A stretch of DNA of 64,000 nt. Source: an uncultured Eubacteriales bacterium (GTDB taxonomy: Bacteria > Bacillota > Clostridia > Oscillospirales > CAG-272). The stretch is taken from positions 67 through 64,066 of the forward strand of contig CAKSLR010000001.1 of the NCBI GenBank assembly GCA_934467435.1. The letters run 5' to 3'. The position numbers and the translations under genes are program-made. Positions 2,292 through 17,059 of the stretch are shown here, piece after piece (positions within the stretch are counted from its first letter, which is position 1; each line of letters opens with the position of its first letter). The notes beneath the pieces are model-generated. The model was not told where the DNA came from and did no database searches. It worked only from the letters and a program-made list of their open reading frames with translations.

Positions 2292-2349
2292 CCGGCACGC
2301 CCGCGGTCGATTTTTGTATTTTCTTGGGCAACTGCCCCTGATTTGCCAG

Positions 2350-2378
2350 TTTACAATCCCCGGGGCTTGTGGTATGAT
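2350..2378 (+). promoter_or_regulatory. Promoter of the TetR gene
   Basis: TTTACA (2350-2355), 17-nt spacer, TGg-TATGAT (2373-2378, extended -10). Confidence 0.55.
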
Positions 2379-2411
2379 AAGAGCGGAAACGAAAACAAGG
2401 AGGGGGATGCT

Positions 2412-2942
2412 TTGCCGAACAATTATACCAAAGATTCGATCAAAAAAGCCTTTATCGAACTGCTCAACGAGCGCCCTCTCAACAAGATCAGCGTCAGAAG
2501 CATTGTGGATATCTGCAACATCAGCCGCAACACGTTTTATTACCATTACCAGGACGTGCCGCAGCTGCTGGAGGAAATCATCATTGAGTCGGCGGACACA
2601 CTGATTGCGCGCTACCCCACCATCGACTCGATCGGCGCGTGTGTAGACGAGGCATTTGCCTTTGCCCAGAAAAACAAGCGCGCCATTTACCACATCTACC
2701 ACTCGGTGGACCGGGATGCCTATGAAGAATTTCTGATGAAAATGTGCGACCACGTGGCACACACGCACATTGACGCCCTGCTTGCCGGACGCGGGATTGC
2801 GCCGAACGACCGCGAGGCGCTGATTCACTGCATGAAATACGTTTGTTTCGGCGCCTGCATCGACTGGACCAAAACCGGTATGAAAAGCAATATTGTGGAA
2901 GAATACCACCGCATTGTCGATCTGTTCCTGCGTGCCTATTGA
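2412..2942 (+). CDS. TetR/AcrR-family transcriptional regulator
   Basis: N-terminal HTH region ...SIKKAFIELLNERPLNKISVRSIVDICNISRNTFYYHYQDV... The ORF-track ATG (2343) lies upstream of the promoter. An in-frame TTG at 2412 sits 7 nt after AAGGAGGGGG. Confidence 0.75.
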   Translation: MPNNYTKDSIKKAFIELLNERPLNKISVRSIVDICNISRNTFYYHYQDVPQLLEEIIIESADTLIARYPTIDSIGACVDEAFAFAQKNKRAIYHIYHSVDRDAYEEFLMKMCDHVAHTHIDALLAGRGIAPNDREALIHCMKYVCFGACIDWTKTGMKSNIVEEYHRIVDLFLRAY

Positions 2943-3075: not shown

Positions 3076-3678
3076 ATGTATTCTGTGGTTCCCATGAAAA
3101 TTGCCAAAATCGGTCATATCGTTTCGGCGGTTTTTCTGTTTGCCCTGGGGCTGAGCCTGATTCTCTACCCCGATTTTTCGGTTCCCGTGGTAGAGAAGGT
3201 TTGCGGGGTCTATCTGATTTTATTCGGTGCCATCAAAATGGTGGGGTACCTCTCGCGGGATATTTACCGGCTGGCGTTCCAGTATGATTCGGTATTCGGC
3301 ATCATTCTGGCCGGCATCGGCATTGCGTTTCTTGCCCGCCCCGAATCCACACTGACCTTTGTTTCCATTCTGCTCGGGCTGGCGGTGTTCAGCGACGGCG
3401 TGATCAAAGTGCAGGTGGCACACCACGCCCGTAAATTCGGCATTGAAGCGTGGTGGGCGATTTTTCTGCTTGCCGTGCTGGCAGGCATCGGCGGGCTGTG
3501 CATTGTGATTCACCCCATGGAGGGCGCACGGGCGCTTGGCATTGTGCTGGGCGTGGTGCTGATGGTGGACGGCGTGATGAGCGCCCTGACCGTTCTGACC
3601 TCTGTAAAAATCAAGGAATACAGTGACCCGCGCATTGAAGTGACCTATATCACGTCGGACGGGGACGAAAAGAAATGA
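3076..3678 (+). CDS. Small multi-pass membrane protein (DUF308/HdeD-like)
   Basis: Six hydrophobic helices with repeated G-rich helix pattern. The stop overlaps the acpS start (ATGA at 3675-3678). Confidence 0.5.
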   Translation: MYSVVPMKIAKIGHIVSAVFLFALGLSLILYPDFSVPVVEKVCGVYLILFGAIKMVGYLSRDIYRLAFQYDSVFGIILAGIGIAFLARPESTLTFVSILLGLAVFSDGVIKVQVAHHARKFGIEAWWAIFLLAVLAGIGGLCIVIHPMEGARALGIVLGVVLMVDGVMSALTVLTSVKIKEYSDPRIEVTYITSDGDEKK

Positions 3679-4022
3679 GCGTTACCGACATCGGCATTGA
3701 CCTGGTCTCGGTCGGCAGATTTGCCGGGCGGGGCAAAGGTGTGGAAAAATACTTTCTTTCCCCGGCGGAGGGTGCGGAATTTGCCGCACTGCCGCCCGCC
3801 CGCCGCCCGCTTTACCTTGCTACCCACTGGGCGTGCAAAGAGGCGATTTTCAAAGCAACGGGCGACCGCAACTATACCGCTTATACCCTTTCCCACCGGG
3901 AGGACGGCAAGCCCTTTCTCGTCGGGCGCCCCGATCTTCTCATCTCCATCAGCCATGACAACGATTTCGTTGTGGTAATCATAGAAAAGACAGAAAGAAA
4001 TGAGGATTCCGAACATGAATGA
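3675..4022 (+). CDS. acpS: Holo-ACP synthase (group I 4'-phosphopantetheinyl transferase)
   Basis: 115 aa. IGIDLVSVGRF..., WACKEAIFKATG, GKPFL...ISISHD match the AcpS pattern. Confidence 0.85.
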   Translation: MSVTDIGIDLVSVGRFAGRGKGVEKYFLSPAEGAEFAALPPARRPLYLATHWACKEAIFKATGDRNYTAYTLSHREDGKPFLVGRPDLLISISHDNDFVVVIIEKTERNEDSEHE

Positions 4023-4257
4023 AAATGAAGTAAAAGCAAAAATCAAAGAAATGCTCTGCGACCGCCTCGGCATTGATGCCGACGCGCTCGGCTATGATAC
4101 CGTGCTGTTTGGCGACGGCATCGGGCTGGATTCGATCGACTCGCTGGAGATCATCTCCGCCATTGACGAAGAATACGGCGTTTCGATGACCGGTGTGGGC
4201 AAAGAACACTTCCGCAACATTGATGCACTTGCCGCCTACGTGGTTGCCAACGCCTGA
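4015..4257 (+). CDS. Acyl carrier protein (phosphopantetheine-binding)
   Basis: 80 aa from the ATG at 4015 (GAGGA upstream; overlaps the acpS stop). GLDSIDSLEIISAIDEEYGV contains the DSL Ser attachment motif. Confidence 0.85.
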   Translation: MNENEVKAKIKEMLCDRLGIDADALGYDTVLFGDGIGLDSIDSLEIISAIDEEYGVSMTGVGKEHFRNIDALAAYVVANA

Positions 4258-4300
4258 GAACGCGGGAACCTGAGAACGGAAAAGAAAAGGAAAAACGGAT

Positions 4301-6673
4301 ATGACGAACGAAAGAAACCGCTGTGTCATCACGGGTCTTGGGGTGATTTCCGCCATCGGCAACGATGTGCCAACCTGCTGGGAGAGTATTCTTTCGGCAA
4401 AGAGCGGCATTGACCACACGACCACGCTGGATACGGAAGGCTGCTATGCCGACTATGCGGCAGAGGTCAAGGGGGTAAACGATGCCGATTCGCCCCTTGA
4501 CCGCGCTACCGTGCTTTGCCTGCGGGCAGCCAAAGAAGCCCTGACCGATGCGGCGCTTCCCGATTTTGCGGGCAGTGCACGCGCCTCGGTCATCATGGGG
4601 AGCTGCGTGGGCGGCGGCCGCAGCATGGCTGCCTACTACCGTGGGGAAAAGACCCGGCAAAACGTACGGAACATGCCCATTTCCGCCATTGCCAACCATG
4701 TGGCATCGCTCTGCCACGCGGGCGGGGTGGTAACGAATGTGGCAAACGCCTGCGCGGCGGGCACCATCAGCATCGCCTATGCCTCCGACCTGATCCGGGC
4801 GGGCAGGGCGGATGTGGTGGTTGCCGGCGGGGCGGATGCGTTTTCCGCCGTCCCCTACTCCGGGTTTCTTTCGCTGCACGCGCTGGATGAAGAATCCTGT
4901 TCGCCCTTCAACCGCTCCCATGGCATTACGCTGGGTGAGGGCGCCGGTGCGGTGATTGTGGAATCTTATGCCCACGCGAAGGCGCGGGGCGCGCACATTT
5001 ACTGCGAGGTACTGGGCTCCGGTATCAGCAGCGACGCCTTCCACATCACGGCGCCCCGCCCGGACGGGGAGGGGCAGATGAGCGCCATCCGCGATGCCAT
5101 TGCCCACTCCGGTCTTGCGGCACAGGATGTGGATTACGTCAACGCCCACGGCACCGGCACGGCGAAAAACGACGAGGCGGAGTTCCTTTCCCTGCACACC
5201 ATTTTTGACGGGGAGCGGGACGGACTTTGCGTCAGTTCGACCAAAGCCATGACGGGGCACTGCCTCGGCGCGGCGGGGGCAATCGAATCGGTCTTTGCCA
5301 TCAAGGCGCTGGCGGAGGGTGTGGTACCCCCGACGCTCGGCTACACCGAAGAGGACCTTGCGGTACTGAAGGAAAAGGCAGGGCCCCTGAATTTCTGCCC
5401 CAATCTGCCGCACAAAGAAAAACTGCACACCGTGATGGATAACTCCTTTGCCTTCGGCGGTACGAACGCCAGCCTGCTCTTTTCGGACAAGGCAGGCGAG
5501 ATTCCCGATGCACCCGCGCGGGAGGATATCGTACTGACGGGCATCGGCATTGTCTCTCCGCTCGGAAACGGCAAAAACCGCTATCTTGCCGCCTGCTGCG
5601 GGGGCGAGACGATCGGGGCGGAAGGACGCTCTTCGGTCAGTGCGGCGGATTATGACGCGCTCGGGCTGAAAATGGCGTTTTACCGCAAACTGGACCACCT
5701 CAGCCAGTTGCAGGCAGTCTCGGGGCTGGATGCCCTGCGGGACGGCGGCTACACCGTGACCCCGGAGAACGCCAAGGAAATCGGCATCATCATCGGCACC
5801 TCCGAGGGGGCGCTGGGTCCGAGCTGCGAATTCCAGGAAATGATTGACGAAAAGGGGAACGCGGGCGGCAGCGCCTTCCGGTTCCCGAACACCGTTTATA
5901 ACGCGGCGGGCGGCTATCTTTCCATCTGCTCCGGCATCCGCGGTTACAATGTGACCGTGACCAACGGCGCCCAGTCGGGTCTGCAGTCGGCGGCATACGC
6001 CATGCAGGTCATCCGCAACGGGTGGGAAAGCGCCATGCTTGCCACCGGTACGGACGAAAACAGCGATATTATGACCGAACTCTACCGCTGCCTCGGTCCG
6101 GTTGCCGACCGGCGGGTTGCCCCTTATGCGGGGGAGGATACCATGACCCTCTCGGACGGCAGCGTGTCTCTTCTCCTGGAGACAGCCTCCTCCGCTGCGG
6201 CGCGCGGCGCGCGCCGCTACGGCAGACTGACCGGCTACGGCATGGGGCACGGCGATGTTCCCTTCGGGGAAGTGCGCGGTTCGGCGCGCGGGCTGTCGGA
6301 CGCCATCGAAGCCGCCCTTGCCGATGCGGGCATCGGCGCGGGTGAGATCGATGCGGTCATCGGGTTTGCCAACGGTCTGAGCGAAGTCGACGAAACCGAG
6401 GACAAGGTTCTTTCCCGCTTTGTGGATTCGGCGCGGGTGCCGGTTCTCACGGTGAAAGAACGGATGGGCGAGGGCAGAGCGGCATCCGCCGCACTGGCGC
6501 TGGCGCACGGGGCGCTCCTGCTTGCGGGAGAGTTGCCGAACGAGGGCGACGCTTATCTGACAAAGAACGGCAAAAAAGAAAAAACCACGGTACGCGGGGA
6601 GGACATCCGGCGTGTACTGCTGCTCTCTTACGCGCCGGGCGGTTCTTATACCGCGCTGGTGCTGGAAAAATAA
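4301..6673 (+). CDS. Fused beta-ketoacyl-ACP synthase (FabF-like, Cys-His-His) plus C-terminal Cys-less KS-like (CLF-like) domain
   Basis: 790 aa. N-terminal half: VANAC(151)AAG, VNAH(283)GTGT, TKAMTGH(320)CLGAAG, FAFGGTNASL. C-terminal half (about aa 405-790) has the same fold signature (IVLTGIGIVSPLG, VTVTNGA(557)Q(558)SGLQSAAYAMQVIRNG, ATGTDE), but the Cys and both His positions are replaced. Confidence 0.85.
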   Translation: MTNERNRCVITGLGVISAIGNDVPTCWESILSAKSGIDHTTTLDTEGCYADYAAEVKGVNDADSPLDRATVLCLRAAKEALTDAALPDFAGSARASVIMGSCVGGGRSMAAYYRGEKTRQNVRNMPISAIANHVASLCHAGGVVTNVANACAAGTISIAYASDLIRAGRADVVVAGGADAFSAVPYSGFLSLHALDEESCSPFNRSHGITLGEGAGAVIVESYAHAKARGAHIYCEVLGSGISSDAFHITAPRPDGEGQMSAIRDAIAHSGLAAQDVDYVNAHGTGTAKNDEAEFLSLHTIFDGERDGLCVSSTKAMTGHCLGAAGAIESVFAIKALAEGVVPPTLGYTEEDLAVLKEKAGPLNFCPNLPHKEKLHTVMDNSFAFGGTNASLLFSDKAGEIPDAPAREDIVLTGIGIVSPLGNGKNRYLAACCGGETIGAEGRSSVSAADYDALGLKMAFYRKLDHLSQLQAVSGLDALRDGGYTVTPENAKEIGIIIGTSEGALGPSCEFQEMIDEKGNAGGSAFRFPNTVYNAAGGYLSICSGIRGYNVTVTNGAQSGLQSAAYAMQVIRNGWESAMLATGTDENSDIMTELYRCLGPVADRRVAPYAGEDTMTLSDGSVSLLLETASSAAARGARRYGRLTGYGMGHGDVPFGEVRGSARGLSDAIEAALADAGIGAGEIDAVIGFANGLSEVDETEDKVLSRFVDSARVPVLTVKERMGEGRAASAALALAHGALLLAGELPNEGDAYLTKNGKKEKTTVRGEDIRRVLLLSYAPGGSYTALVLEK

Positions 6674-6694
6674 CAGAAAAAAGGAAAACAACTG

Positions 6695-7426
6695 ATGAAA
6701 GTGGCACTGGTAACGGGAGCCTCACGCGGGATCGGACGGGCATGCGCCCTGCGCCTGGCGCAGGACGGTTTCTGCGTGGTGGTCAACTACGCGCACAGCG
6801 AAAAAGAGGCTGCCGCGGTTCTGGATGAGATCCGCGCCGGCGGCGGTGAGGGGATGCTGTATCGTGCGGATGTCTCCGACCTCGATCAGGTCAAGGGGAT
6901 GATGCGCGAGGTGTTCCGCGCTTACGGACAGATGGATGTGCTGGTCAACAACGCCGGCATGGTACGGGATGAATACCTGCTGATGCTGAACCCCGACACG
7001 CTGGACGCCTGCCTGGATCTGAACGTCAAGGGATATTTCTACTGCACGCAACAGGCGGTATTAAAAATGTTCCGCCGCAAGTGCGGGACGGTGATTCACA
7101 TGTCCTCGGTCAGCGGGGAACTTGCCCTGGCGGGGCAAAGCGTTTACAGCGCCACCAAAGGTGCGGTGAACGCCATGACCCGCACCATGGCAAAGGAACT
7201 GGCGCCCTACGGCATCCGCGTCAACGCGGTGGCACCCGGCTTTATTGAAACCGAGATGCTGGACGCGCTGCCTGAAGAAAAGAAAAAAGAATACTTAAAC
7301 GCCATTCCCATGCACCGGCTCGGAAAGGTGGAGGACGTGGCGGGGCTGGTTTCCTTCCTCGCCTCCGATGCCGCCGCTTACATGACGGGGCAGGTACTGA
7401 CGCTGGACGGAGGCATTTCGCTGTGA
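6695..7426 (+). CDS. fabG: 3-oxoacyl-ACP reductase (SDR)
   Basis: TGASRGIG cofactor motif, NNAG, and the S...YSATKGAV catalytic triad region. Confidence 0.85.
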   Translation: MKVALVTGASRGIGRACALRLAQDGFCVVVNYAHSEKEAAAVLDEIRAGGGEGMLYRADVSDLDQVKGMMREVFRAYGQMDVLVNNAGMVRDEYLLMLNPDTLDACLDLNVKGYFYCTQQAVLKMFRRKCGTVIHMSSVSGELALAGQSVYSATKGAVNAMTRTMAKELAPYGIRVNAVAPGFIETEMLDALPEEKKKEYLNAIPMHRLGKVEDVAGLVSFLASDAAAYMTGQVLTLDGGISL

Positions 7427-7875
7427 TGAACATTTACGAAGTCAACCGCCGTCTGAAGCAGCGGCCGCCCTTTCAGATGGTGGAAAAGGTGAGCGAACTG
7501 ACCCCCGGCGAATCTGCCGTGGGGCACAAGACCGTATCGGTCAATGACCCGTGGTTTGCAGGTCACTTTCCCGGTGAGCCGATTCTGCCCGGCGTTCTGA
7601 TTGTGGAAAGCTGCGCGCAGCTCTGCTCCCTGACGGTGGAAGCGGACGGCACGGCGGAGGACAAATTCTACGTCCTTCTGAAAATCGACAATTTCAAATT
7701 TCTGCGCCCCATTCTGCCGGGTGATGTCATGGACATCACGGTGAAAAAGAAGAGTGGCGCGGGACCCCTTATCACCTTTGATGCGGTGGTATCGGTCGGC
7801 GGCACCGTGCACGCGAAGGGCGGTATTTCCTTTACCGCCATGGAGAAGAGCCGTCTGGACGAAGGAGAACACTGA
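7423..7875 (+). CDS. fabZ: 3-hydroxyacyl-ACP dehydratase (hotdog fold)
   Basis: PPFQMVEKV..., FAGHFPGEPILPGVLIVESCAQL. 4-nt overlap with fabG. Confidence 0.85.
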   Translation: MMNIYEVNRRLKQRPPFQMVEKVSELTPGESAVGHKTVSVNDPWFAGHFPGEPILPGVLIVESCAQLCSLTVEADGTAEDKFYVLLKIDNFKFLRPILPGDVMDITVKKKSGAGPLITFDAVVSVGGTVHAKGGISFTAMEKSRLDEGEH

Positions 7876-7876
7876 G

Positions 7877-8785
7877 ATGGAAAAAACGGCATTTCTCTTT
7901 GCCGGTCAGGGCGCGCAGAGCGTCGGGATGGGCAAAGATTTTTATGAAGAAAACGAAGCGGCACGCGCGGTGTTTGCGATGGGGGAACGACTTGCCCCCG
8001 GCATCACGGCGCTCTGTTTTGCGGGCGACAGTACGGAACTGAACCGCACCGAAAACACGCAGCCCGCCCTGTTTCTGACCGACCTTGCCATTGCCGCCGC
8101 GCTGCGTGCGGCGGGGGTGAGTGCGGACGGTGCGGCGGGCTTTTCGCTGGGGGAGATTCCCGCGCTTGCCTTTGCCGAAGTCCTATCGGAAGAAGAAGCG
8201 TTCCGCTTTGTACTGCTGCGCGGAAAGAGCATGGCAGCGGCAGCCGCCCGCCACGCGGGCGGCATGGCGGCAGCCCTGAAACTGCCGCCCGAACAGGTAG
8301 AGGAAATCTGCCGCCGCTTCCGTGAGATCTGGCCGGTCAACTATAACTGCCCGGGGCAGGTCTCCTGCGCGGGGAGTGCAGCGGAGATTGACGATTTCTG
8401 CGCCGCCGTCAAAGCGGCGGGGGGCAGAGCCGTCAAACTGCCGGTGAGCGGCGCGTTCCACACCCCGTATATGGAAGAAGCGGCACCCGCGCTGCGGGAA
8501 TTTCTTGCCGGCGCGGCGCTCGCGGCGCCCGCCATCCCGGTTTACGCCAACCGCACGGGCGAGCCTTACCCTGCCGACCCTGCGGAAATCACCGCGCGGC
8601 TGTGCGAGCAGGTTTTCTCCCCTGTGCTGTTTGAAAAGACGCTGCACCGGATGTGGGAGGACGGGTACCGCCGGTTCATCGAAGTCGGTGCGGGCAGCAC
8701 GCTCAGCGGCTTTGTGCGCCGTACCCTGCCCGATGCCGTTACGGTAACGGTGAACAACGTTGCCGCCATGGCGGCGCTCAACTGA
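7877..8785 (+). CDS. fabD: Malonyl-CoA:ACP transacylase
   Basis: Internal start MEKTAFLFAGQGAQSVGMG. GFSLGE nucleophile motif and GAFHTPYM. The ORF-track start at 7754 overlaps fabZ and is rejected. Confidence 0.85.
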   Translation: MEKTAFLFAGQGAQSVGMGKDFYEENEAARAVFAMGERLAPGITALCFAGDSTELNRTENTQPALFLTDLAIAAALRAAGVSADGAAGFSLGEIPALAFAEVLSEEEAFRFVLLRGKSMAAAAARHAGGMAAALKLPPEQVEEICRRFREIWPVNYNCPGQVSCAGSAAEIDDFCAAVKAAGGRAVKLPVSGAFHTPYMEEAAPALREFLAGAALAAPAIPVYANRTGEPYPADPAEITARLCEQVFSPVLFEKTLHRMWEDGYRRFIEVGAGSTLSGFVRRTLPDAVTVTVNNVAAMAALN

Positions 8786-8798
8786 CGGAGGTTCGCCG

Positions 8799-9611
8799 AT
8801 GGAAAACAACCGCAAAAGAACGCTGGACGACGTCCGCCGTTCGGAGAACACCAAAACCTGCCCGCGCTGCAAAGAACCGGTGCGCGAGGCGGTGCTTGCC
8901 GATACCTATTACATCTGCCCCCTTTGCGGGGCGCATTTTCCGATTCCCGCCCGCCTGCGGGCGGAGTACCTCTCGGACACCGGGCGGTTTTCGGAGTTAT
9001 TCGGGGAGGAGATCTTCACCGACCCGCTTGCCTTCCCCGACTATGAGGAAAAATTCCGCTCCTCCATGCAGAAGAGCGGCGAAAACGAAGGGGTGCTTTG
9101 CGGCACCACACAGATCGACGGTCACCACGCCTGCCTGTTTGTGATGAACCCCGAGTTCATGCTCGGTTCGATGGGCACGGTGGTGGGCGACCGCATTACC
9201 GCCCTGTTTGAATACGCGACCGAGCACCGTCTGCCCGTGATCGGCTACACGGTATCGGGCGGCGCGCGGATGCAGGAAGGGATGCTTTCGCTCATGCAGA
9301 TGGCAAAGGTTTCCGCCGCCGTGAAAAAACACAGCGAAAGCGGGCTTTTGTACATTGTGGGCATTACCGACCCGACCATGGGCGGGGTGACCGCCAGTTT
9401 TGCCATGCTGGGAGACGTGATTTTTGCCGAACCCGGCGCCCGCATCGGCTTTGCCGGAAAACGGGTGGTGGAGCAGGTCACGGGTGAAAAACTGCCCGAC
9501 AGTTTTCAGACTGCCGAGTTCCAACTCGAAAACGGGTTTCTTGACGAGATTGTAGAGCGGAAGGAACAGCGCGCGCACCTTGGCGTGCTGCTTGCCATCC
9601 ACGAAAGATAA
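8799..9611 (+). CDS. accD: Acetyl-CoA carboxylase carboxyltransferase beta subunit
   Basis: N-terminal Zn ribbon CPRCKEP...CPLCGAHF. GGAGG at 8787-8791 precedes the ATG at 8799. Confidence 0.85.
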   Translation: MENNRKRTLDDVRRSENTKTCPRCKEPVREAVLADTYYICPLCGAHFPIPARLRAEYLSDTGRFSELFGEEIFTDPLAFPDYEEKFRSSMQKSGENEGVLCGTTQIDGHHACLFVMNPEFMLGSMGTVVGDRITALFEYATEHRLPVIGYTVSGGARMQEGMLSLMQMAKVSAAVKKHSESGLLYIVGITDPTMGGVTASFAMLGDVIFAEPGARIGFAGKRVVEQVTGEKLPDSFQTAEFQLENGFLDEIVERKEQRAHLGVLLAIHER

Positions 9612-9622
9612 AGGAGAGAGCG

Positions 9623-10483
9623 ATGACCGAAGAACTGACGGTATATGATAAAATCTGCCGCACCCGGCAGAACGGACGTGCCACGGCGGCGGATTATATG
9701 CTATCGGGCGCCATTTTCACCGATTTCTGCGAGTTGCACGGCGACCGCTGCTTTGGGGACGACCACGCCGTGATCGGCGGCATTGCCCTGCTGCACGACT
9801 TGCCGGTAACGGTGGTCGGCATTGAAAAGGGGCGGGATATCAGCGAGCGGCTGTACCGCAACTTCGGCTGTGTGCTGCCCGAAGGATACCGCAAGGCGCT
9901 GCGCCTGATCCGGGAGGCGGAAAAGTTCCACCGCCCCGTTATCTGCTTTGTGGATACGCAGGGCGCCAACTGCGGCAAGGGCGCGGAGGAGCGCGGCGCG
10001 GGCGAGGCGATTGCCGAAAACCTGTTTGAACTGAGCGACATCCGCACCCCCATCATCACAGTCATGATCGGGGAAGGCGGCAGCGGCGGGGCGCTTGCCC
10101 TGGCGGTTGCCGACCGTGTGTGGATGCTGCGCAACGCCTATTATTCGGTCATTTCGCCCGAGTCGTGCGCCAGCATTCTGTTCAAGGATCCCCACCGCGC
10201 GCCCGAGGCGGCAGAGCACCTGCACCTGACGGCGGACGATTTGCTGGATATGCAGATTGTGGAGAAGGTGATTGAGGAGCCGGATGACTTCCGCGACAGC
10301 GCCGCCCGCGCCAACTTCATGGCATCGCTTGGCGATGCGCTGTACGCCGAACTGCGTACCCTTGCCCGACGCAAGCCCGAAAAACTGGTTGCCGAACGCT
10401 ATGAAAAATACCGCAAGATCGGACGTTACGATTCCTACGGCACGCGGAGCGGACTTTGGAGGTGGCGGCTGGGTGGAAACTGA
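9623..10483 (+). CDS. accA: Acetyl-CoA carboxylase carboxyltransferase alpha subunit
   Basis: FCELHGDRCFGDDHAVIGGIA..., FVDTQGANCG, GEGGSGGALA. Confidence 0.85.
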   Translation: MTEELTVYDKICRTRQNGRATAADYMLSGAIFTDFCELHGDRCFGDDHAVIGGIALLHDLPVTVVGIEKGRDISERLYRNFGCVLPEGYRKALRLIREAEKFHRPVICFVDTQGANCGKGAEERGAGEAIAENLFELSDIRTPIITVMIGEGGSGGALALAVADRVWMLRNAYYSVISPESCASILFKDPHRAPEAAEHLHLTADDLLDMQIVEKVIEEPDDFRDSAARANFMASLGDALYAELRTLARRKPEKLVAERYEKYRKIGRYDSYGTRSGLWRWRLGGN

Positions 10484-11240
10484 CGCACCGAAGAAAAAAG
10501 TTCTGGTTCTGAACGGCAGCCCGCACAAAGAAAAGAGCAGCACCATGGTTGTCACCCGTGCGTTTCTCAATGGGTTGACGAGAAAGGGAACCTACGAGGC
10601 GGAGACCATCTCCGTTGCCGCCCTGAAGGTGACCCCCTGCATGGGCTGCCTTTCATGCTGGGGACGCACCGAGGGCGAATGTGTCATCCGCGGGGATGAC
10701 GTTGCCGCCGTCAAGGAAAAAATCCTTGCGGCGGATCTTTTGCTGCTCAGTTTTCCCCTTTACTTTTTCGGGGTGCCGGGGCAGATGAAACTGCTCGGCG
10801 ACCGCCTGCTTTCGATGATGAAGACCTACCGCGGGCAAAAGGTACCTCCGGACGGTTCGCCCGCGCACGGGATGCGCGATCCGCGACCCGCGCAGAAAAT
10901 TCTTCTGATTTCGGGCTGCGCCTATGTGGAGACCGGGGAGGTTTACCAACCGACCCTCAAGCAATGCGACCTGATTTGCGGAAAGGGGGGCTATACTGCC
11001 GTGCTCTGCCCGCAACTGAAAACCATGCTGGATAACGGCGGCACGCGGGTGGAGCGGACGCTTGCCCGCTTCCGTGCGGCGGGAGAAGAATTTGAGAGAA
11101 GCGGAGCGCTTTCCGATGCGACCCTTGCTGCACTGACCCGTCCGCCGTTTTCCGATACGGTTTACAAGACCATCCTTGCCGAGGTGTGGCGCAAGGAGCG
11201 AGAGGAAGGAGAAAAAGCCCGTGGTACATCTTGCGATTGA
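10473..11240 (+). CDS. Flavodoxin-fold NAD(P)H/FMN oxidoreductase with compact 4-Cys motif (iron-sulfur flavoprotein, Isf-like)
   Basis: KKVLVLNGSPHKEKSSTM (FMN_red-type N-terminus). CMGCLSCWGRTEGEC is C-x2-C-x2-C-x7-C (nt 10638-10682). The GTG at 10473 sits 9 nt after GGAGG and overlaps the accA stop. Its own stop overlaps the plsX start. Confidence 0.65.
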   Translation: METDAPKKKVLVLNGSPHKEKSSTMVVTRAFLNGLTRKGTYEAETISVAALKVTPCMGCLSCWGRTEGECVIRGDDVAAVKEKILAADLLLLSFPLYFFGVPGQMKLLGDRLLSMMKTYRGQKVPPDGSPAHGMRDPRPAQKILLISGCAYVETGEVYQPTLKQCDLICGKGGYTAVLCPQLKTMLDNGGTRVERTLARFRAAGEEFERSGALSDATLAALTRPPFSDTVYKTILAEVWRKEREEGEKARGTSCD

Positions 11241-12192
11241 TCTTCTCGGTGCCGATACGCCGGAGGAGGAACTTTGCCGCGGGGCGGTGACTGCCCTGCG
11301 GAAAAACCCCGACCTTTACCTGCACCTGTTCGGCCATGCCGCGCGGTTGCAGCCATTGTTAGCCGAAAGTAAAATTTCGGTTGACCATTATGAAATTGTG
11401 GACTGCCCCGGTACGGTGACAAACGAGGACGCCTCTCTGACTGCCTACGAAAAAAAAGATGCCTCTATCGTGCGCGCCATGCAACTTGCCAAGGATCGGG
11501 CGGATGTGTGCGGGGTCATTACCTGCGGTTCTACCGGCGCGGTGCTGGTATCCGCGATCATGATTCTCGGTAAAATCCGCGGCATGCGCCCGGTGCTGGC
11601 AGTAGAACTGCAAAGCGAGGACGGCAAGCCGCTGCTGCTGCTGGACTGCGGCGCAAACATCGACAGCCGCGCGGAACTGTTGCTTTCATTTGCCCGGCTG
11701 GGGAACGCTTATATGAAGAGCAAAGGGCAGGACGCGCCGCGGATTGCCCTGCTTTCCAACGGTAGGGAGGATACAAAAGGCTGTGAAACCGTCAAGGAAG
11801 CAAATGCGCTGCTGCGCGCGACGGAAGGGTTGCACTTTATCGGCAATATTGAGGCGACCGATGCCCTGCGTGGGGAAACGGATGTCATCGTTTGCGACGG
11901 GTTCCACGGGAATATTCTGCTGAAAAGCATCGAAGGTACGGCAAAGTCCGTGCTCCGTCAACTGCAGAAGGCAAACATGGGTGACGGCGCACAGGCGGCG
12001 CTGGATGAAGTCTATCGCCGATATGATTTCAACGCGATGGGCGGGGCAGTTCTGCTCGGCGTCAACAAACTGGTGATGAAGGGACACGGCGCGGCAAAGG
12101 GGGATGCGATTGCAAACATGATCGCCCAGGCATACCCGCTTGCCGATCACGGTCTTGCCGACCGCATCCGGCAGATTTACGCCGGGGCGTAA
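11221..12192 (+). CDS. plsX: Phosphate acyltransferase PlsX
   Basis: AIDLLGAD, GSTGA and DCGAN motifs. GTG start at 11221 after GAAGGAG. Confidence 0.85.
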   Translation: MVHLAIDLLGADTPEEELCRGAVTALRKNPDLYLHLFGHAARLQPLLAESKISVDHYEIVDCPGTVTNEDASLTAYEKKDASIVRAMQLAKDRADVCGVITCGSTGAVLVSAIMILGKIRGMRPVLAVELQSEDGKPLLLLDCGANIDSRAELLLSFARLGNAYMKSKGQDAPRIALLSNGREDTKGCETVKEANALLRATEGLHFIGNIEATDALRGETDVIVCDGFHGNILLKSIEGTAKSVLRQLQKANMGDGAQAALDEVYRRYDFNAMGGAVLLGVNKLVMKGHGAAKGDAIANMIAQAYPLADHGLADRIRQIYAGA

Positions 12193-12653: not shown

Positions 12654-13880
12654 TTACTCTTCATCATCCTTCTTACGACGGAAGGCGAAGAACCCGGCTG
12701 CGCCGACCGCAGCCAACATCGCGAGCGAAGAACCGACCGCGATGGAAGAACCGCAACCGCCGCCACTACTGCCCGATGCTGCCGTGGTCGTGGTACCGCC
12801 GTTATTACCGGTTGCCTGCGTGCCGCCGTTGTTGGTCGTTACCTTGCCGCCATCATCCTTTTTGGTGGTGAAGACACGGTCGATCGTTACCTTTTTGGTG
12901 GTGGTACGGGAGGTAGGTTTTGCGGAGGTGGTACGCTCAACGGACGCGTCCGCAGCGCCGTACTCTGCGAGTTTGTTGTTCGGGATAATCGAATCATTCT
13001 TTACAACTTCCTCAGAGAGCGTAAAGGTATCATAGTAAGCAAGGGACGCACCCGCCGTCGGTTCGTTCATCGTTTCCCGGTAACCGCCGTTATAGTAACG
13101 GTTGTACTGCAGCGCGCTGTTGGTTACGGGGTTATAGGAATAACGGTCGTTCATCTGGAAGTCAAAGCGGATCGCCTGACCGTCCTTCAGCGTGATGCCC
13201 TGACCATCGGCGGAAATACCGAACTCAACGGCATAACCGGTGTCCAACTGTTGGAAACCCCAGCCCTGCTTCGAGAGATCCGTGTTTGCGCTCCAACCGA
13301 AGATGTTGGTGGTATCGGTAATCAGTTTACCGCCGTTCACGAACATACGACCCTTATCTTCATCATACTCATAGGTCTTATTCTCTTCCAGTACATAGCA
13401 GGAAGGCTGACCGTTGAACCCTTCGATACGGTACTGCAGACCGCGGTTCAGCACACCGTCACCCTTCAGGCCGGCAATGCCCCATTCCTGCTTACCGGTG
13501 TTGGTAAAGTCAATGAACATTTCCACCGAGTCAGACTCCCAGGGGTTCTTACCGGCGCCGTTCACTTCTACGTCATTTACGATGACATAGCAGTAAATCA
13601 TATTCGTCGCCTTCGACCATACAAAGCGGGCAATCCCGTGCGTATAAACGTCTTTCGGCGCATTCTTCGGGCTCATACCGATCACGAGCGGCTCTGCGGT
13701 CGTATAAGCTTCATCCATCTTACCGTCCACCTGAATCGGGTGGGCAGCATCTACCATTTTCACCTTACCAATATTCCGGGTGCCTTCGGCAGTATCGCCG
13801 TCCGCTGCCAGCAATGTACCCGTCAACACGGTTGCCAGAACCAGCACAAACGCCAAAACGCCAAATAGTGTTTTCTTCAT
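12654..13880 (-). CDS. Secreted CBM9/DOMON-like carbohydrate-binding protein with Thr/Gly-rich stalk and C-terminal membrane anchor
   Basis: Start MKKTLFGVLAFVLVLATVLTG (signal peptide) at 13880. IQVDGKMDEAY..., WESDSVEMFIDF, GYAVEFGIS and IRFDFQMNDR fit the CBM9-like pattern. The C-terminus reads ...SGSSGGGCGSS-IAVGSSLAMLAAVGAAGFFAF-RRKKDDEE. Confidence 0.7.
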   Translation of the reverse strand: MKKTLFGVLAFVLVLATVLTGTLLAADGDTAEGTRNIGKVKMVDAAHPIQVDGKMDEAYTTAEPLVIGMSPKNAPKDVYTHGIARFVWSKATNMIYCYVIVNDVEVNGAGKNPWESDSVEMFIDFTNTGKQEWGIAGLKGDGVLNRGLQYRIEGFNGQPSCYVLEENKTYEYDEDKGRMFVNGGKLITDTTNIFGWSANTDLSKQGWGFQQLDTGYAVEFGISADGQGITLKDGQAIRFDFQMNDRYSYNPVTNSALQYNRYYNGGYRETMNEPTAGASLAYYDTFTLSEEVVKNDSIIPNNKLAEYGAADASVERTTSAKPTSRTTTKKVTIDRVFTTKKDDGGKVTTNNGGTQATGNNGGTTTTAASGSSGGGCGSSIAVGSSLAMLAAVGAAGFFAFRRKKDDEE

Positions 13881-14017
13881 TGTTCGAATCCTTTCACCTT
13901 GTGGTTTGTTTTCGGCAAAATCACGGTAAAACGCAGTGAGTTGGGCAGAAAGCACAAACGGAAGATGCGCTTTTTGTGCAACTTTACTATTTTTCACCCA
14001 TTTACCTTTCTATCGTA

Positions 14018-14312: not shown

Positions 14313-16826
14313 CTATTTTCCCTGCTCCCGCCAGAACCGGCGGAACAGAACGCCGAGCGCGGACGGATCCCCCACGAATTTGAGATGGTGCCAGTGGTTC
14401 GGAATCATACCCCGCCAAAGGGGGTCGGCAAAACGGTCGTCAATCAGCAGAAGAGTGCCGCGGTCTTCTTCCCCGCGGATGACCCGCCCCGCCGCCTGCA
14501 GCACGCGGTTCATGCCGGGGTAGATGTAGGCATACTGCTTGCCTTCTTCATAAATTTCCTGGTAGTAATCGCAGATCGCCTCGCGCTCGGGGGATAGTTG
14601 AGGCAGGCTGACCCCGACAACGGCGGCACCGATCAGGCGGCTGCCGGCGAGGTCGATGCCCTCGGCAAACACGCCGCCCGTCACGCAGAAGCCGACCAGC
14701 GTTTCGCCGGGGTCCGGCGCAAAGCGGGAAAGAAATTCCTCCCGCGCCCGCTGGGGCGCACCGCGCTTTTGCACGGCAATTTTCACAGCGGGATACGCAC
14801 GGTGGAAGGCAATGCAGATTTCCTCAAGGTAGGCAAACGAAGGGCAGAACACAAAATAGTTCCCCACATGGGCGCTGACCATTTCGTAAATTGCCGCGGC
14901 AATGGCGGGGGCGCTTTCGGTGCGCGCGGTAAAGCGGGTACTGATCTGATCCATGACCGCCACCGAAAGATGTTCTTCTTCAAAGGGGGAATCGAGGAGC
15001 AGTTCCTCATCCTCCGCCCGCCCGCCGAGCACCGTACGGTAAAAGGGCAATGGGGCAAGCGTTGCCGAAAAGAGGACGGCGCTCTTTCCGAGATCCAGAC
15101 GGGCGCTGAGCACCTCGGCAGGGTCAAGGCAGACCGTGCGCACACGGTACTGCGCATCCTCCCGCAGGTAAAAGGTGACAAAACGATCGGAATACAGTTC
15201 CGCACGGGTGGCAAAATTCCGGAGCGGATAGCAGAATGCGCGCAGTTTTTCCCGCAGGGAGAGCGGCGTGCGGCGATCCTGCGCGGCGCGCAGTCCTTCC
15301 TCCGCCAGGGCGGCAACGGCAAAAAACAACTCTTCCGGCGCCGCTTTCTGCCGTGTGAAGGCGTGCGTCACGCCATCGGCATCCTCATAGGGGCGCTCGC
15401 CCGAGAGCGCCGCTTTGACCGTGCGCAGAAACAGGCGGCGCACCTCCTCCGCGCGGGAAAGGAGGGGGGAGGCAGACGCCTCCTCCCGCAGTGTGGCGAC
15501 CAGGGCGCCGAGGGTGCGGGAATCGAGTTCCCCGCTGTACATTTCCCGCGCCCGTTCGAGAAGATCGTGCGCCTCATCGATCAGGAAGCAGTAGTTCCCG
15601 TCCTCCGAGAAGTAGCGGCGCAGGTACATTCGGGTATCGAACAGATAATTATAATCCCCGACGATCACATCGCAAAACCGGCTGTAGCGCAGGGAAAGTT
15701 CGTAGGGACAGACGCCGAAGCGGGCGGCAACCGCCCGCACCTCCGCCTCCCCCGCCACGGGCGTGGGGGAAGAAAGCAGCGCAAGCGCCGCGCTCTCCAG
15801 ACGCTCCCCGCCCGCACGGGCAAAGCGGCAGGGGGCAAGCGAATCGCGGCAGAGCATTTTTTCGGTACAGATGCGCTCTTTTGCCGTAAGCACGATGGCG
15901 CGCAGTTTGCCGCCCGCGGCGGCAAAGCGCCCGAGGGCATCCGCCGCTGCGCGGGCGGTGGTGGTTTTGGGGGTGAGGTAAAACACGCGGTCACACAGCC
16001 GCTCCCCGAGGGCACGCAGGGCGGGATACAGCACCCCCGCCGTTTTGCCGGTGCCGGTGGGGGCGCAGGCATACAGACGGCGGTGATGGCGGATGGTGCG
16101 GTAGGTTGCCTGAATCAGATCCTCCTGCCCCATGCGCGGGCGGGGATAGGGAAAGCGCAGGGTACGCAGGGTGGGCAGCCGTTCCGCCACCCGGGCAACC
16201 TCGGCTACCGCCGCGTGGGAGAGCGTTGCCCGCACACGGGCAAAAAAGGTGTCGGCTGCCGCACGGGTCACCGTTTCCTCAAACGTTCCCTCCCGCCCGT
16301 CACGGGGAGAGCGGAGCAGCGCCCGCACGTGAACGGCGGGCGCCGTCTCCGTCGAAAAATACAGGCAGGCAAGCAAAAACAGTTCCCCGCGCACATGGCG
16401 CAGAGTCTCTTTGTCGGGGGATGCCGGGTCCCCGTTCACCGTGCGAACCACCGTCAGCGTAGCGGAAAGCCCCGCCATAGCACCGCCGTGCGGCAGAAGG
16501 ACACCGTCCGCCGATCCGAAGAGGCAGAAGCGCCTCTCCCCTTCCTCAAATTCCAGCGAGAAGGAACGCGCCTCCCCGATACCGCCCGGCAGCGCGCCGG
16601 ACGATGGCAGCGGAGGAGTGCCTTCTTCCCCCTCCCGCGGAATTTCGCTTGCCAGCCGGCAAAGGGAGAGCGAAACCAACTCCCCGAGAGAGACGCGGAT
16701 GCACCCCTCATTCTCGTCATAATACAAAATTGCACGCCCCCTTCGGAATCTGCGATCCAAAATTGTAAACAATTTGAAAACGCCCTTGTCAAAACGCAAA
16801 AGATGTGTTATAATACCCCTCGTCAT
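14313..16826 (-). CDS. XPD/Rad3/DinG-family Fe-S DNA helicase with uncharacterised N-terminal domain of about 230 aa
   Basis: Walker A CAPTGTGKT, IDEAHDL box, and four Cys between them (ICTEKMLCRDSLAPCRF...GVCPYE). The start is uncertain: ATG at 16826 or TTG at 16727. The ORF-track start 16904 runs through tRNA-Val. Confidence 0.75.
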   Translation of the reverse strand: MTRGIITHLLRFDKGVFKLFTILDRRFRRGRAILYYDENEGCIRVSLGELVSLSLCRLASEIPREGEEGTPPLPSSGALPGGIGEARSFSLEFEEGERRFCLFGSADGVLLPHGGAMAGLSATLTVVRTVNGDPASPDKETLRHVRGELFLLACLYFSTETAPAVHVRALLRSPRDGREGTFEETVTRAAADTFFARVRATLSHAAVAEVARVAERLPTLRTLRFPYPRPRMGQEDLIQATYRTIRHHRRLYACAPTGTGKTAGVLYPALRALGERLCDRVFYLTPKTTTARAAADALGRFAAAGGKLRAIVLTAKERICTEKMLCRDSLAPCRFARAGGERLESAALALLSSPTPVAGEAEVRAVAARFGVCPYELSLRYSRFCDVIVGDYNYLFDTRMYLRRYFSEDGNYCFLIDEAHDLLERAREMYSGELDSRTLGALVATLREEASASPLLSRAEEVRRLFLRTVKAALSGERPYEDADGVTHAFTRQKAAPEELFFAVAALAEEGLRAAQDRRTPLSLREKLRAFCYPLRNFATRAELYSDRFVTFYLREDAQYRVRTVCLDPAEVLSARLDLGKSAVLFSATLAPLPFYRTVLGGRAEDEELLLDSPFEEEHLSVAVMDQISTRFTARTESAPAIAAAIYEMVSAHVGNYFVFCPSFAYLEEICIAFHRAYPAVKIAVQKRGAPQRAREEFLSRFAPDPGETLVGFCVTGGVFAEGIDLAGSRLIGAAVVGVSLPQLSPEREAICDYYQEIYEEGKQYAYIYPGMNRVLQAAGRVIRGEEDRGTLLLIDDRFADPLWRGMIPNHWHHLKFVGDPSALGVLFRRFWREQGK
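16786..16814 (+). promoter_or_regulatory. Promoter of tRNA-Val
   Basis: TTGTCA (16786-16791), 17-nt spacer, TATAAT (16809-16814). Confidence 0.6.
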
Positions 16827-16903
16827 GGAGGCATAGCTCAGTTGGTTAGAGTACTTGCTTGACATGCAAGGGGTCACTGGTTCGAGTCCAGTTGTCTCCA
16901 CCA
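16827..16903 (+). tRNA. tRNA-Val (anticodon GAC)
   Basis: Acceptor GGAGGCA/TGTCTCC, D-loop AGCTCAGTTGGTTAGAGT, anticodon stem CTTGC/GCAAG with loop TTGACAT, T-loop GGTTCGAGTCC, and encoded CCA. Confidence 0.9.
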
Positions 16904-17059
16904 CAGCCTCAAAGGCGTTTTGCCTTTGGGGCTCCTTGCTTTTTTCAGCGCTTTTTTGCGTTTTTTGTCGGATTTTCTCTCAGTATAACACAAAATTTCT
17001 CCTCCCGCAAGGGGGGGCCTTGCTTTTTTGCTGTTTTTTACAGATTGGAGCCTGTTTTC

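Follow-up and report, generated by a model that had tools for sequence, protein, structure and literature searches.

A single-chain ketosynthase with one catalytic and one triad-less half in a putative fatty-acid operon of gut Clostridia

Canonical FabF is a homodimer of about 410 amino acids with two active sites (4LS5, 2GFW) and normally acts after FabH, and pairs of a ketosynthase (KS) with a chain-length factor (CLF) have been taken as characteristic of polyketide and specialised-lipid pathways. Where, then, does a protein belong that holds two KS folds in one chain of 790 amino acids, only the first of them with a catalytic triad, and that is encoded among genes of type II fatty-acid synthesis (FAS-II)? 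The question is raised by the open reading frame (ORF) at 4301..6673 on the + strand of a 64,000-nucleotide stretch from an uncultured Eubacteriales bacterium (GTDB lineage Oscillospirales, CAG-272; GenBank assembly GCA_934467435.1, contig CAKSLR010000001.1, positions 67 to 64,066), referred to below as the window. A sequence-only reading had proposed a single-chain condensing enzyme in which a FabF-like KS is fused to a CLF-like KS fold, and the motifs and codons on which it relied were all found at their positions once the translation was checked. The N-terminal half (N-half) is a working FabF-type ketosynthase and the C-terminal half (C-half) a FabF-derived copy without the Cys-His-His triad, joined in a free-standing design (KS-KS') that is widespread yet uncharacterised.

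A FabF-type ketosynthase joined to a triad-less FabF-derived half

The ORF runs without internal stop to a stop codon at 6671-6673, and its homologues measure 748-826 amino acids. Both ketosynthase Pfam domains (PF00109, PF02801) were found twice along the chain, in the N-half (residues 7-348) with E values of 9e-38 and 5e-47 and in the C-half, searched alone, with 1.9e-13 and 4.6e-9; the NCBIfam FabF model TIGR03150 recognised the two halves with E values of 3.7e-102 and 2.3e-31, respectively. The whole protein scored 438.6 bits with TIGR03150, against a cut-off of 493.75, and 410.6 bits with the subfamily model NF005589, against a cut-off of 387, and the N-half alone reached 342 and 326 bits, each under the cut-off.

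The N-half (residues 1-397, 4301..5491) is catalytically complete, as had been read from its motifs. It aligned end to end with Bacillus subtilis FabF (4ls5; E 1.3e-76, 38% identity), and the alignment placed the nucleophile at Cys151 (TGC, 4751..4753, in VANACAAG), the first catalytic His at His283 (CAC, 5147..5149, in VNAHGTGT) and the second at His320 (CAC, 5258..5260, within TKAMTGHCLGAAG), with Lys315 encoded at 5243-5245. These four residues were invariant in 40 of 40 homologues. A short and poorly conserved linker, AGEIPDAPARED (residues 398-409, 5492..5527), free of stops and frameshifts, leads into the C-half (residues 410-790, 5528..6670), which is homologous to the N-half at about 25% identity and keeps the full length of a KS.

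What has become of the triad in the C-half was read from its alignment to Escherichia coli FabF (phmmer against PDB sequences), gap-free near the active site. Cys163 of FabF falls on Ala557 (GCC, 5969-5971) and Thr164 on Gln558 (CAG, 5972-5974), both within VTVTNGAQSG; His303 falls on Phe689 (TTT, 6365..6367; GFANGLS, residues 688-694), Lys335 on Lys719 and His340 on Glu724. The last two belong to a stretch Lys719...Gly723-Glu724-Gly-Arg726 (6455..6478), surrounded by VKERMGEGRAAS (residues 718-729), where the Lys is kept and Glu stands in place of the second catalytic His. A profile of 15 C-halves of the family gave the same register over FabF residues 16-426 (E 5e-49), and in the alignment to 2gfv, FabF with the mutation C163Q, it is Ala557 rather than Gln558 that lies opposite the engineered Gln. 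Because the single-sequence, profile and C163Q alignments agree, the C-half holds no hidden triad and its Gln lies truly one residue past the Cys position, both as the sequence-only reading had held; a mis-registered set of Cys and His residues was also sought in alignments to the C163A mutant, and rejected.

Across the 40 homologues mean column identity was 0.78 in the N-half, 0.38 in the linker and 0.66 in the C-half. At the vestigial site, position 557 was variable (Ala in 29, Pro and Ser in 3 each, Val and Asn in 2 each, Tyr in 1), and Gln558 and Phe689 were each kept in 39 of 40, Lys719 in 34, and Glu724 and Arg726 in all. In a 58-sequence alignment, where identity goes down to roughly 50%, about 60 residues of the C-half were invariant, and the block G523-SAFRFPNTVYNAAGGYLSI-542 (5867..5926), which holds the motif FPNTV with F528, T531 and V532, was invariant at 19 of its 20 positions; at the sole varying site, 527, the present protein has Arg where at least 90% of homologues have Lys. 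From this near-invariant block and the column identities, the C-half is clearly under selection.

The fusion is common. Among 5.8 billion proteins searched, at least 120 clusters with lengths of 748-826 amino acids matched over full length at 57-99% identity; their members carry generic names only (e.g., "beta-ketoacyl-ACP synthase family protein"). When genomes were scanned, one for each species, 536 stretches proved to encode a KS-KS' relative; 75 of the best 80 covered almost the whole protein (from residue 1-7 to 785-790), and the remaining 5 had lost sequence at a contig end or gave a shorter match. In all, hundreds of genomes of Clostridia encode the fusion of about 790 amino acids, at 54-99% identity. 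The hosts are of Christensenellales, Oscillospirales and Lachnospiraceae type, and among them are isolates such as Ruminococcaceae bacterium FB2012, Coprococcus hominis, Eubacterium sp. MSJ-21 and Lachnospiraceae bacterium G41. Some hosts that submitters labelled otherwise, e.g., as Akkermansia or Acidiphilium, evidently result from mis-binning. The same gene order was found around a copy with 99% identity on a contig of 255 kb from the gut metagenome of Hadza. An assembly or annotation fusion of two genes, or a frameshift, near nt 5500 is refuted by the junction, which is intact in these hundreds of genomes.

Relatives of the C-half are themselves mostly fused. When it was searched against 1.84 billion cluster representatives, 106 matches were obtained at E<=1e-30, nearly all of them proteins of 750-830 amino acids matched at about residues 400-800. 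Among the 150 best mapped, the full-length fusions carried C-x-H-K-H in the N-domain except two (P0182 and P0190, S-x-S-E-H), and not one C-domain kept the triad; a few C-domains had Gln at the Cys position, as classical CLFs do, and many had Lys and Glu at the Lys335 and His340 positions. An FPNTV-type motif was present in the C-domain of 49 of 104 long proteins and K..GE in 34 of the 104. In the next-closest fused relatives Gln558 was lost, positions 557-558 reading AE, VS, YA, IA or NI. In a neighbour-joining tree, all N-domains grouped with E. coli and B. subtilis FabF, the C-domains fell outside this clade together with stand-alone proteins of the Lys/Glu type and the anammox protein amxFabFmut considered below, and the C-half was not sister to its own N-half. 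The tree has no bootstrap values and degenerate domains may attract each other in it, and it was used only for the congruence of the N-domain and C-domain subtrees. That congruence argues for an old fusion whose halves would have diverged together, and not for a recent internal duplication.

Two further observations concern the gene and its relatives. Metagenomes hold more than 100 distinct (<50% identical) families of 750-830-amino-acid KS-KS' fusions (P0121-P0270), whose C-domains differ widely at the dead-triad residues, and stand-alone partners of 400 amino acids and Lys/Glu type occur among the metagenomic relatives too. On the opposite strand, an antisense ORF of 846 codons (4151-6691, -) spans the whole KS-KS' gene; it has no homology support, arises from the GC content of 60% and could mislead a naive gene caller.

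Predicted packing and relation to known ketosynthase pairs

How the two halves lie together was addressed with an AlphaFold2 model of the whole 790-residue chain, built on the 58-sequence alignment. The model was compact (mean pLDDT 89.8, pTM 0.93), with very low confidence only at residues 194-197 and 533-536, the latter (pLDDT <50) inside the near-invariant block, and the pTM makes the relative placement of the halves a confident prediction. The top Foldseek match in the PDB was 6RIW, the KS-CLF didomain of PfaC from Moritella marina (E 1.2e-51, TM-score 0.81 normalised to the query and 0.70 to the target, 912 columns), which spanned both halves of the model; single FabF chains matched one half only (TM 0.46). 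The prediction supports an intramolecular pseudo-heterodimer, raised as a possibility by the sequence-only reading, in which the C-half would fold back on the N-half as a KS dimer partner or CLF does. Since the C-half is predicted to pack as a triad-less partner, the enzyme would have one active site, not two. With PfaC the protein thus shares the order of a KS followed by a triad-less KS fold in one chain and, by the model, the pseudo-heterodimer; PfaC differs in being a multidomain megasynthase with dehydratase domains and tandem acyl carrier protein (ACP) partners, as against a free-standing protein of 790 amino acids here, and sequence identity is only 19%. Nothing follows the second KS fold in the chain, FabG, FabZ, FabD and ACP are separate partner proteins, and the NCBIfam PfaA model gave 89 bits against a cut-off of 1010, so it is not a Pfa megasynthase.

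Judged by sequence, the protein is best described as a fused, free-standing form of the FabF-derived KS/CLF-like heterodimer of anammox bacteria. There, amxFabF2 has its triad intact and amxFabFmut has Val or Thr for the Cys and Asn, Glu or Cys for the His residues; each is inactive alone, and together they form a KS/CLF-like heterodimer that decarboxylates malonyl-ACP to acetyl-ACP and yields acetoacetyl-ACP, the decarboxylation being ascribed to the intact KS subunit within the heterodimer and not to the dead one (bioRxiv 10.64898/2026.05.19.726425). Phe135, Thr138 and Val139 of amxFabFmut, on a helix-loop-helix, line the tunnel of the active subunit, and the authors of this May 2026 preprint describe the pair as the first chain-length factor discovered in a fatty-acid pathway (bioRxiv 10.64898/2026.05.19.726425). 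In our searches, amxFabF2 (9s5h_B) was the third-best match of the N-half (E 5e-74) and amxFabFmut (9s5h_C) was among the best matches of the C-half profile (E 1.4e-46). Aligned with the C-half of the window, amxFabFmut had 28.6% identity over 315 columns; the Phe, Thr and Val of the tunnel fell on F528, T531 and V532, and the two proteins also share NG before the Cys position and K....GE. Homologues of 9S5H chain C all came from Brocadia, Jettenia, Scalindua and other anammox bacteria.

The two systems (for the anammox pair, 9S5H and 9S5I) are alike in being FabF-derived pairs of which one unit has Cys-His-His and the other does not, in a dead unit with Glu for the second His, the Lys kept (K....GE) and an FPNTV helix-loop-helix, and in a dedicated ACP and FabZ that adjoin the pair. 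They differ in that the anammox units are two genes and two polypeptides with the dead one upstream, whereas here they form one chain with the active half first; in the replacements themselves, Val or Thr for the Cys and Asn for the first His there, a variable Ala and Phe here; and in setting, a ladderane cluster with radical-SAM genes there and an ordinary FAS-II operon that includes acc, fabD and plsX genes here. For malonyl-ACP decarboxylation in place of a missing FabH, which the sequence-only reading had floated, the split heterodimer is a direct precedent.

The other pairs to which the sequence-only reading had appealed are more distant. The type II polyketide synthase (PKS) KS-alpha/KS-beta pairs (ActI-ORF1/ORF2, 1TQY; AntD/AntE, 6SMO) likewise unite an active KS with a triad-less homologous partner, and in them the CLF partner shapes the tunnel at the interface. 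The C-half has the CLF trait of a full KS fold with both catalytic His gone (Phe689, Glu724). Type II PKS CLFs, unlike the C-half, are separate polypeptides with Gln at the Cys position, where Ala557 stands here with the Gln one residue on, and their clusters carry cyclase and aromatase genes, neither of which is in the present operon. Similarity points in the same direction, with E 1e-24 for the C-half against FabFs, 1.2e-11 against ActI-ORF2 (1tqy_B) and 3.8e-8 against AntE (6smo_C). A C-half of type II PKS CLF or KSQ type was ruled out by Ala557, the variability of that position, the closer FabF and the FAS-II context. The core of the earlier proposal, the KS/CLF logic, is upheld by the residue mapping, the conservation, the model and the 6RIW match; the C-half belongs to neither the type II PKS CLF/KSQ nor the ApeC family.

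Prodiginine PigJ/RedX is one chain of about 760 amino acids with two KS folds and the active-site Cys in one of them. Its inactive domain comes first, where here the active half does, and it serves another pathway. The NCBIfam PigJ model (NF053555, 759 positions) gave 74 bits for the fusion against a cut-off of 900, and the active N-half matched model positions 508-755, i.e., the C-terminal domain of PigJ; the reversed order and a score far under the cut-off rule out membership. ApeO/ApeC (6QSP) resembles the present protein in pairing a KS with an inactive partner as a heterodimer in a FAS-like reducing pathway, and differs in consisting of separate proteins of Gram-negative pigment biosynthesis. 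ApeC keeps one thiolase half only and is about half-size (PMC8358021), and an ApeC-type C-half was ruled out by the presence of both PF00109 and PF02801 and by the alignment over FabF residues 16-426. Compared finally with canonical FabF, the N-half is a genuine FabF-type KS and the C-half comes from the same family; the differences are the two KS-fold domains in one 790-residue chain, the single active site and the lack of a nearby FabH in the window and 84 related loci. Full-text literature searches found no published account of a fused KS-KS' in type II FAS of Clostridia.

Proposed role in a variant fatty-acid synthase and its alternatives

The pathway served by the enzyme was approached through its gene neighbours, by comparing the proteins of the window (tblastn) with 84 related loci, 85 with the window itself, within +/-10 kb of the gene. 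All genes of the operon are on the + strand. An AcpS-type phosphopantetheinyl transferase (PF01648, 3675..4022) precedes an ACP of 80 amino acids (4015..4257; Pfam PP-binding, attachment motif GLDSIDSLE) that adjoins the fusion upstream and is apparently its cognate carrier. Downstream lie FabG, 3-oxoacyl-ACP reductase (6695..7426; TIGR01830, E 3.6e-82); FabZ, 3-hydroxyacyl-ACP dehydratase (7423..7875; NF000582, E 1.5e-34, above cut-off); FabD, malonyl-CoA:ACP transacylase (7877..8785; Pfam Acyl_transf_1); the acetyl-CoA carboxylase carboxyltransferase subunits AccD (8799-9611) and AccA (9623-10483), together 8799..10483, both by Pfam; a flavodoxin-like protein (10473..11240) treated in the next section; and PlsX, acyl-ACP:phosphate acyltransferase (11221..12192; Pfam FA_synthesis, E 5.4e-69; 29 of 85 loci), which links the operon to phospholipid synthesis. 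The core of the 85 loci consisted of KS-KS' (85/85), ACP (81/85), FabG (80/85) and FabZ (77/85).

In the window and the 84 related loci no match was obtained for FabH or FabK, and FabI gave only a weak cross-match to FabG (22.8% identity), in tblastn searches at E<=1e-5 with FabH, FabI and AccC of E. coli and FabK of Streptococcus pneumoniae as queries. An additional short-chain dehydrogenase/reductase was found through the FabG query in one locus only (L074), FabV and FabL not having been queried themselves; AccC was found in 5 loci. The fullest FAS-II operon among the loci, L033 (9673-20307), reads ACP, KS-KS', FabG, FabZ, the flavodoxin-like protein, a second ACP (14315-14557), AccB, AccC, AccD, AccA, FabD, BirA and BioY, and has no FabH, known enoyl reductase or PlsX. 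A full FAS-II set accompanied by AccB, AccC, a BirA-type biotin ligase and the biotin transporter BioY argues that the KS-KS' cassette is the primary fatty-acid system there.

In light of these observations, we consider it probable, with some reserve, that the protein is a single-chain KS/CLF-like pseudo-heterodimer that carries out condensation in a variant FAS-II, and that it probably primes itself. As the architecture indicates, the N-half would catalyse the condensation with the C-half as its triad-less partner, and in the model the latter would pack on the former like a KS dimer partner or CLF, leaving one active site. The helix-loop-helix block GSAFRFPNTVYNAAGGYLSI of the C-half would form one side of the N-half's acyl tunnel, a role suggested by the homologous residues of the anammox heterodimer, and by the same analogy this side may stabilise the active site and set the chain-length preference. 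Together with ACP, FabG, FabZ, FabD, AccDA, the putative ene-reductase and PlsX, the enzyme would make up a variant type II FAS of gut Clostridia, as the operon content suggests. Initiation would probably proceed, as in the anammox pair, by decarboxylation of malonyl-ACP to acetyl-ACP at the N-half and condensation of the product with a second malonyl-ACP, and such self-priming would make FabH unnecessary. KS-catalysed priming has precedents in PfaA-KS (PMC12895367) and Pseudomonas putida FabB (PMC10869286).

Several points weigh against this account. The pTM and a single superposition by Foldseek are what speaks for intramolecular packing, and the fusions may instead form a domain-swapped dimer. 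The anammox pair gave initiation only, and no elongation, in vitro (bioRxiv 10.64898/2026.05.19.726425). Gln558, Glu724 and Arg726 are conserved in a dead site where the proposed mechanism gives them no specific role; the simplest guess is that they belong to a Glu-Arg/Lys network filling the vestigial pocket. The absence of FabH, a second FabF and FabI, FabK, FabL or FabV applies to the 64-kb window and to +/-10 kb of the related loci. Some Lachnospiraceae cassettes, moreover, have neither FabD nor Acc and could there be an accessory system.

This last point leads to a rather unlikely alternative, namely that the same fused enzyme serves an accessory or specialised lipid pathway beside a canonical FAS-II (FabH, FabF, FabK or FabI) encoded elsewhere, and makes or extends only one class of chains, as the CLF systems of polyenes, ladderanes and polyunsaturated fatty acids do. 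All KS/CLF-type pairs characterised to date belong to specialised pathways, and the gene search covered only the window and the related loci. The ACP is divergent, with 36 bits for TIGR00517 against a cut-off of 70, and the cassette of Coprococcus hominis, like those of other Lachnospiraceae, is reduced (TetR, Fe-ADH, the flavodoxin-like protein, ACP, KS-KS', FabG and FabZ only) and is followed by unrelated genes. However, the operon is devoid of tailoring genes (radical SAM, methyltransferase, cyclase, thioesterase, glycosyltransferase), its partners are housekeeping ones (plsX, acpS, accDA or accABCD, fabD, birA, bioY), and the arrangement is kept in hundreds of species from several orders of Clostridia.

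It is improbable that the C-half is itself catalytic, as a new KSQ-like malonyl-ACP decarboxylase working through Gln558, Lys719, Glu724 and Arg726 and passing the acetyl primer to the N-half. The conservation of these four residues at the vestigial site (39, 34, 40 and 40 of 40) would be accounted for in this way, as would the lack of FabH in every locus examined, and a second tunnel leads from the surface to the dead triad in amxFabFmut (bioRxiv 10.64898/2026.05.19.726425). Against it, KS-type decarboxylation requires both His residues, which have given way to Phe689 and Glu724, the Gln occupies the position after that of the Cys, with 557 itself variable, and Gln558 does not persist in the next-closest fused relatives; the authors of the anammox study, too, deem catalysis by the dead subunit unlikely, its tunnel giving no access to a triad (bioRxiv 10.64898/2026.05.19.726425). 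It is very improbable indeed that the C-half survives without function from a tandem duplication, or that two neighbouring fabF genes were joined into one ORF by assembly or annotation: the homology of the halves and the short linker would fit, but the open junction and conserved length recur in at least 120 clusters and 75 of the best 80 loci from independent assemblies, the C-half has its near-invariant 20-residue block and some 60 invariant positions, in the tree it does not pair with the N-half of the same chain, and its relatives in the 1.84-billion-protein library are almost all fusions of 750-830 amino acids.

The candidate enoyl-ACP reductase and the remaining neighbours

The flavodoxin-like protein of the operon (255 amino acids; Pfam Flavodoxin_2/FMN_red) is encoded in 73 of the 85 KS-KS' loci, at a position that differs by lineage (e.g., 13582-14331 in L033 and 8155-8901 in L060, the C. 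hominis locus), and the loci in which it was missing were mostly short or truncated contigs. It has four invariant Cys residues (C56, C59, C62 and C70), and the tight family of which it is a member bears no other name than "flavodoxin family protein". Its best solved relative was 7D38 (profile E 6.4e-11), the flavone reductase FLR of Flavonifractor plautii, with which a new FMN ene-reductase class was founded whose members reduce the C=C bond of alpha,beta-unsaturated carbonyl compounds (PMC7862272). Because it occurs together with the ketosynthase, ketoreductase, dehydratase and ACP where no known enoyl reductase lies nearby, the protein is a candidate for a new class of enoyl-ACP reductase; full-text literature searches found no published account of an enoyl-ACP reductase with a flavodoxin fold. 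Inside the cassette of L060, a Fe-ADH_2 gene (glycerol-1-phosphate-dehydrogenase-like, 6908-7966) and an unannotated ORF of 211 amino acids (8905-9540) were also observed.

Taken together, the data suggest that FabF-derived dead partners are common and occur in fused form, and that hundreds of Clostridia species from gut and rumen encode them in what is apparently their primary operon for fatty acids. A wider proposition is tentative, possible if short of probable: a large group of Clostridia from gut and rumen (Christensenellales, Oscillospirales and many Lachnospiraceae) would run an alternative housekeeping FAS-II, in which the single-chain KS-KS' both primes and elongates without FabH, its dead half acts as a built-in CLF, and the FLR-related four-Cys flavoprotein represents a new class of enoyl-ACP reductase replacing FabI, FabK, FabL and FabV. 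If true, the fatty-acid pathway of abundant commensals would be without two standard antibiotic targets, and expectations as to which commensals are hit or spared by inhibitors of FabH, FabF, FabI or FabK would, on confirmation, have to be revised. Confirmation would also establish a third way in which Firmicutes start synthesis without FabH, offer a natural scaffold, of one chain and one active site, in which to study the control of chain length by a partner, and give a lead to the candidate new enoyl-ACP reductase.

Regulators FabR and DesT control fab genes in Proteobacteria. Directly upstream of acpS and the ACP gene lie a TetR-family protein (2343..2942, +, with a likely start near 2412; TetR_N and TetR_C_8; 39 of 85 loci) and a DUF308 membrane protein (3076-3678, +; 13 of 85 loci), both kept in the closest relatives, and the TetR protein may regulate the fab operon. 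On the 3' side, the operon is followed on the opposite strand by genes for a CBM9-domain protein (12654-13997, -) and a DinG/XPD-type helicase (DEAD_2, Helicase_C_2; 14313-16904, -), both of which are also present on the contig with the 99%-identical copy and have no apparent relation to the fatty-acid genes.

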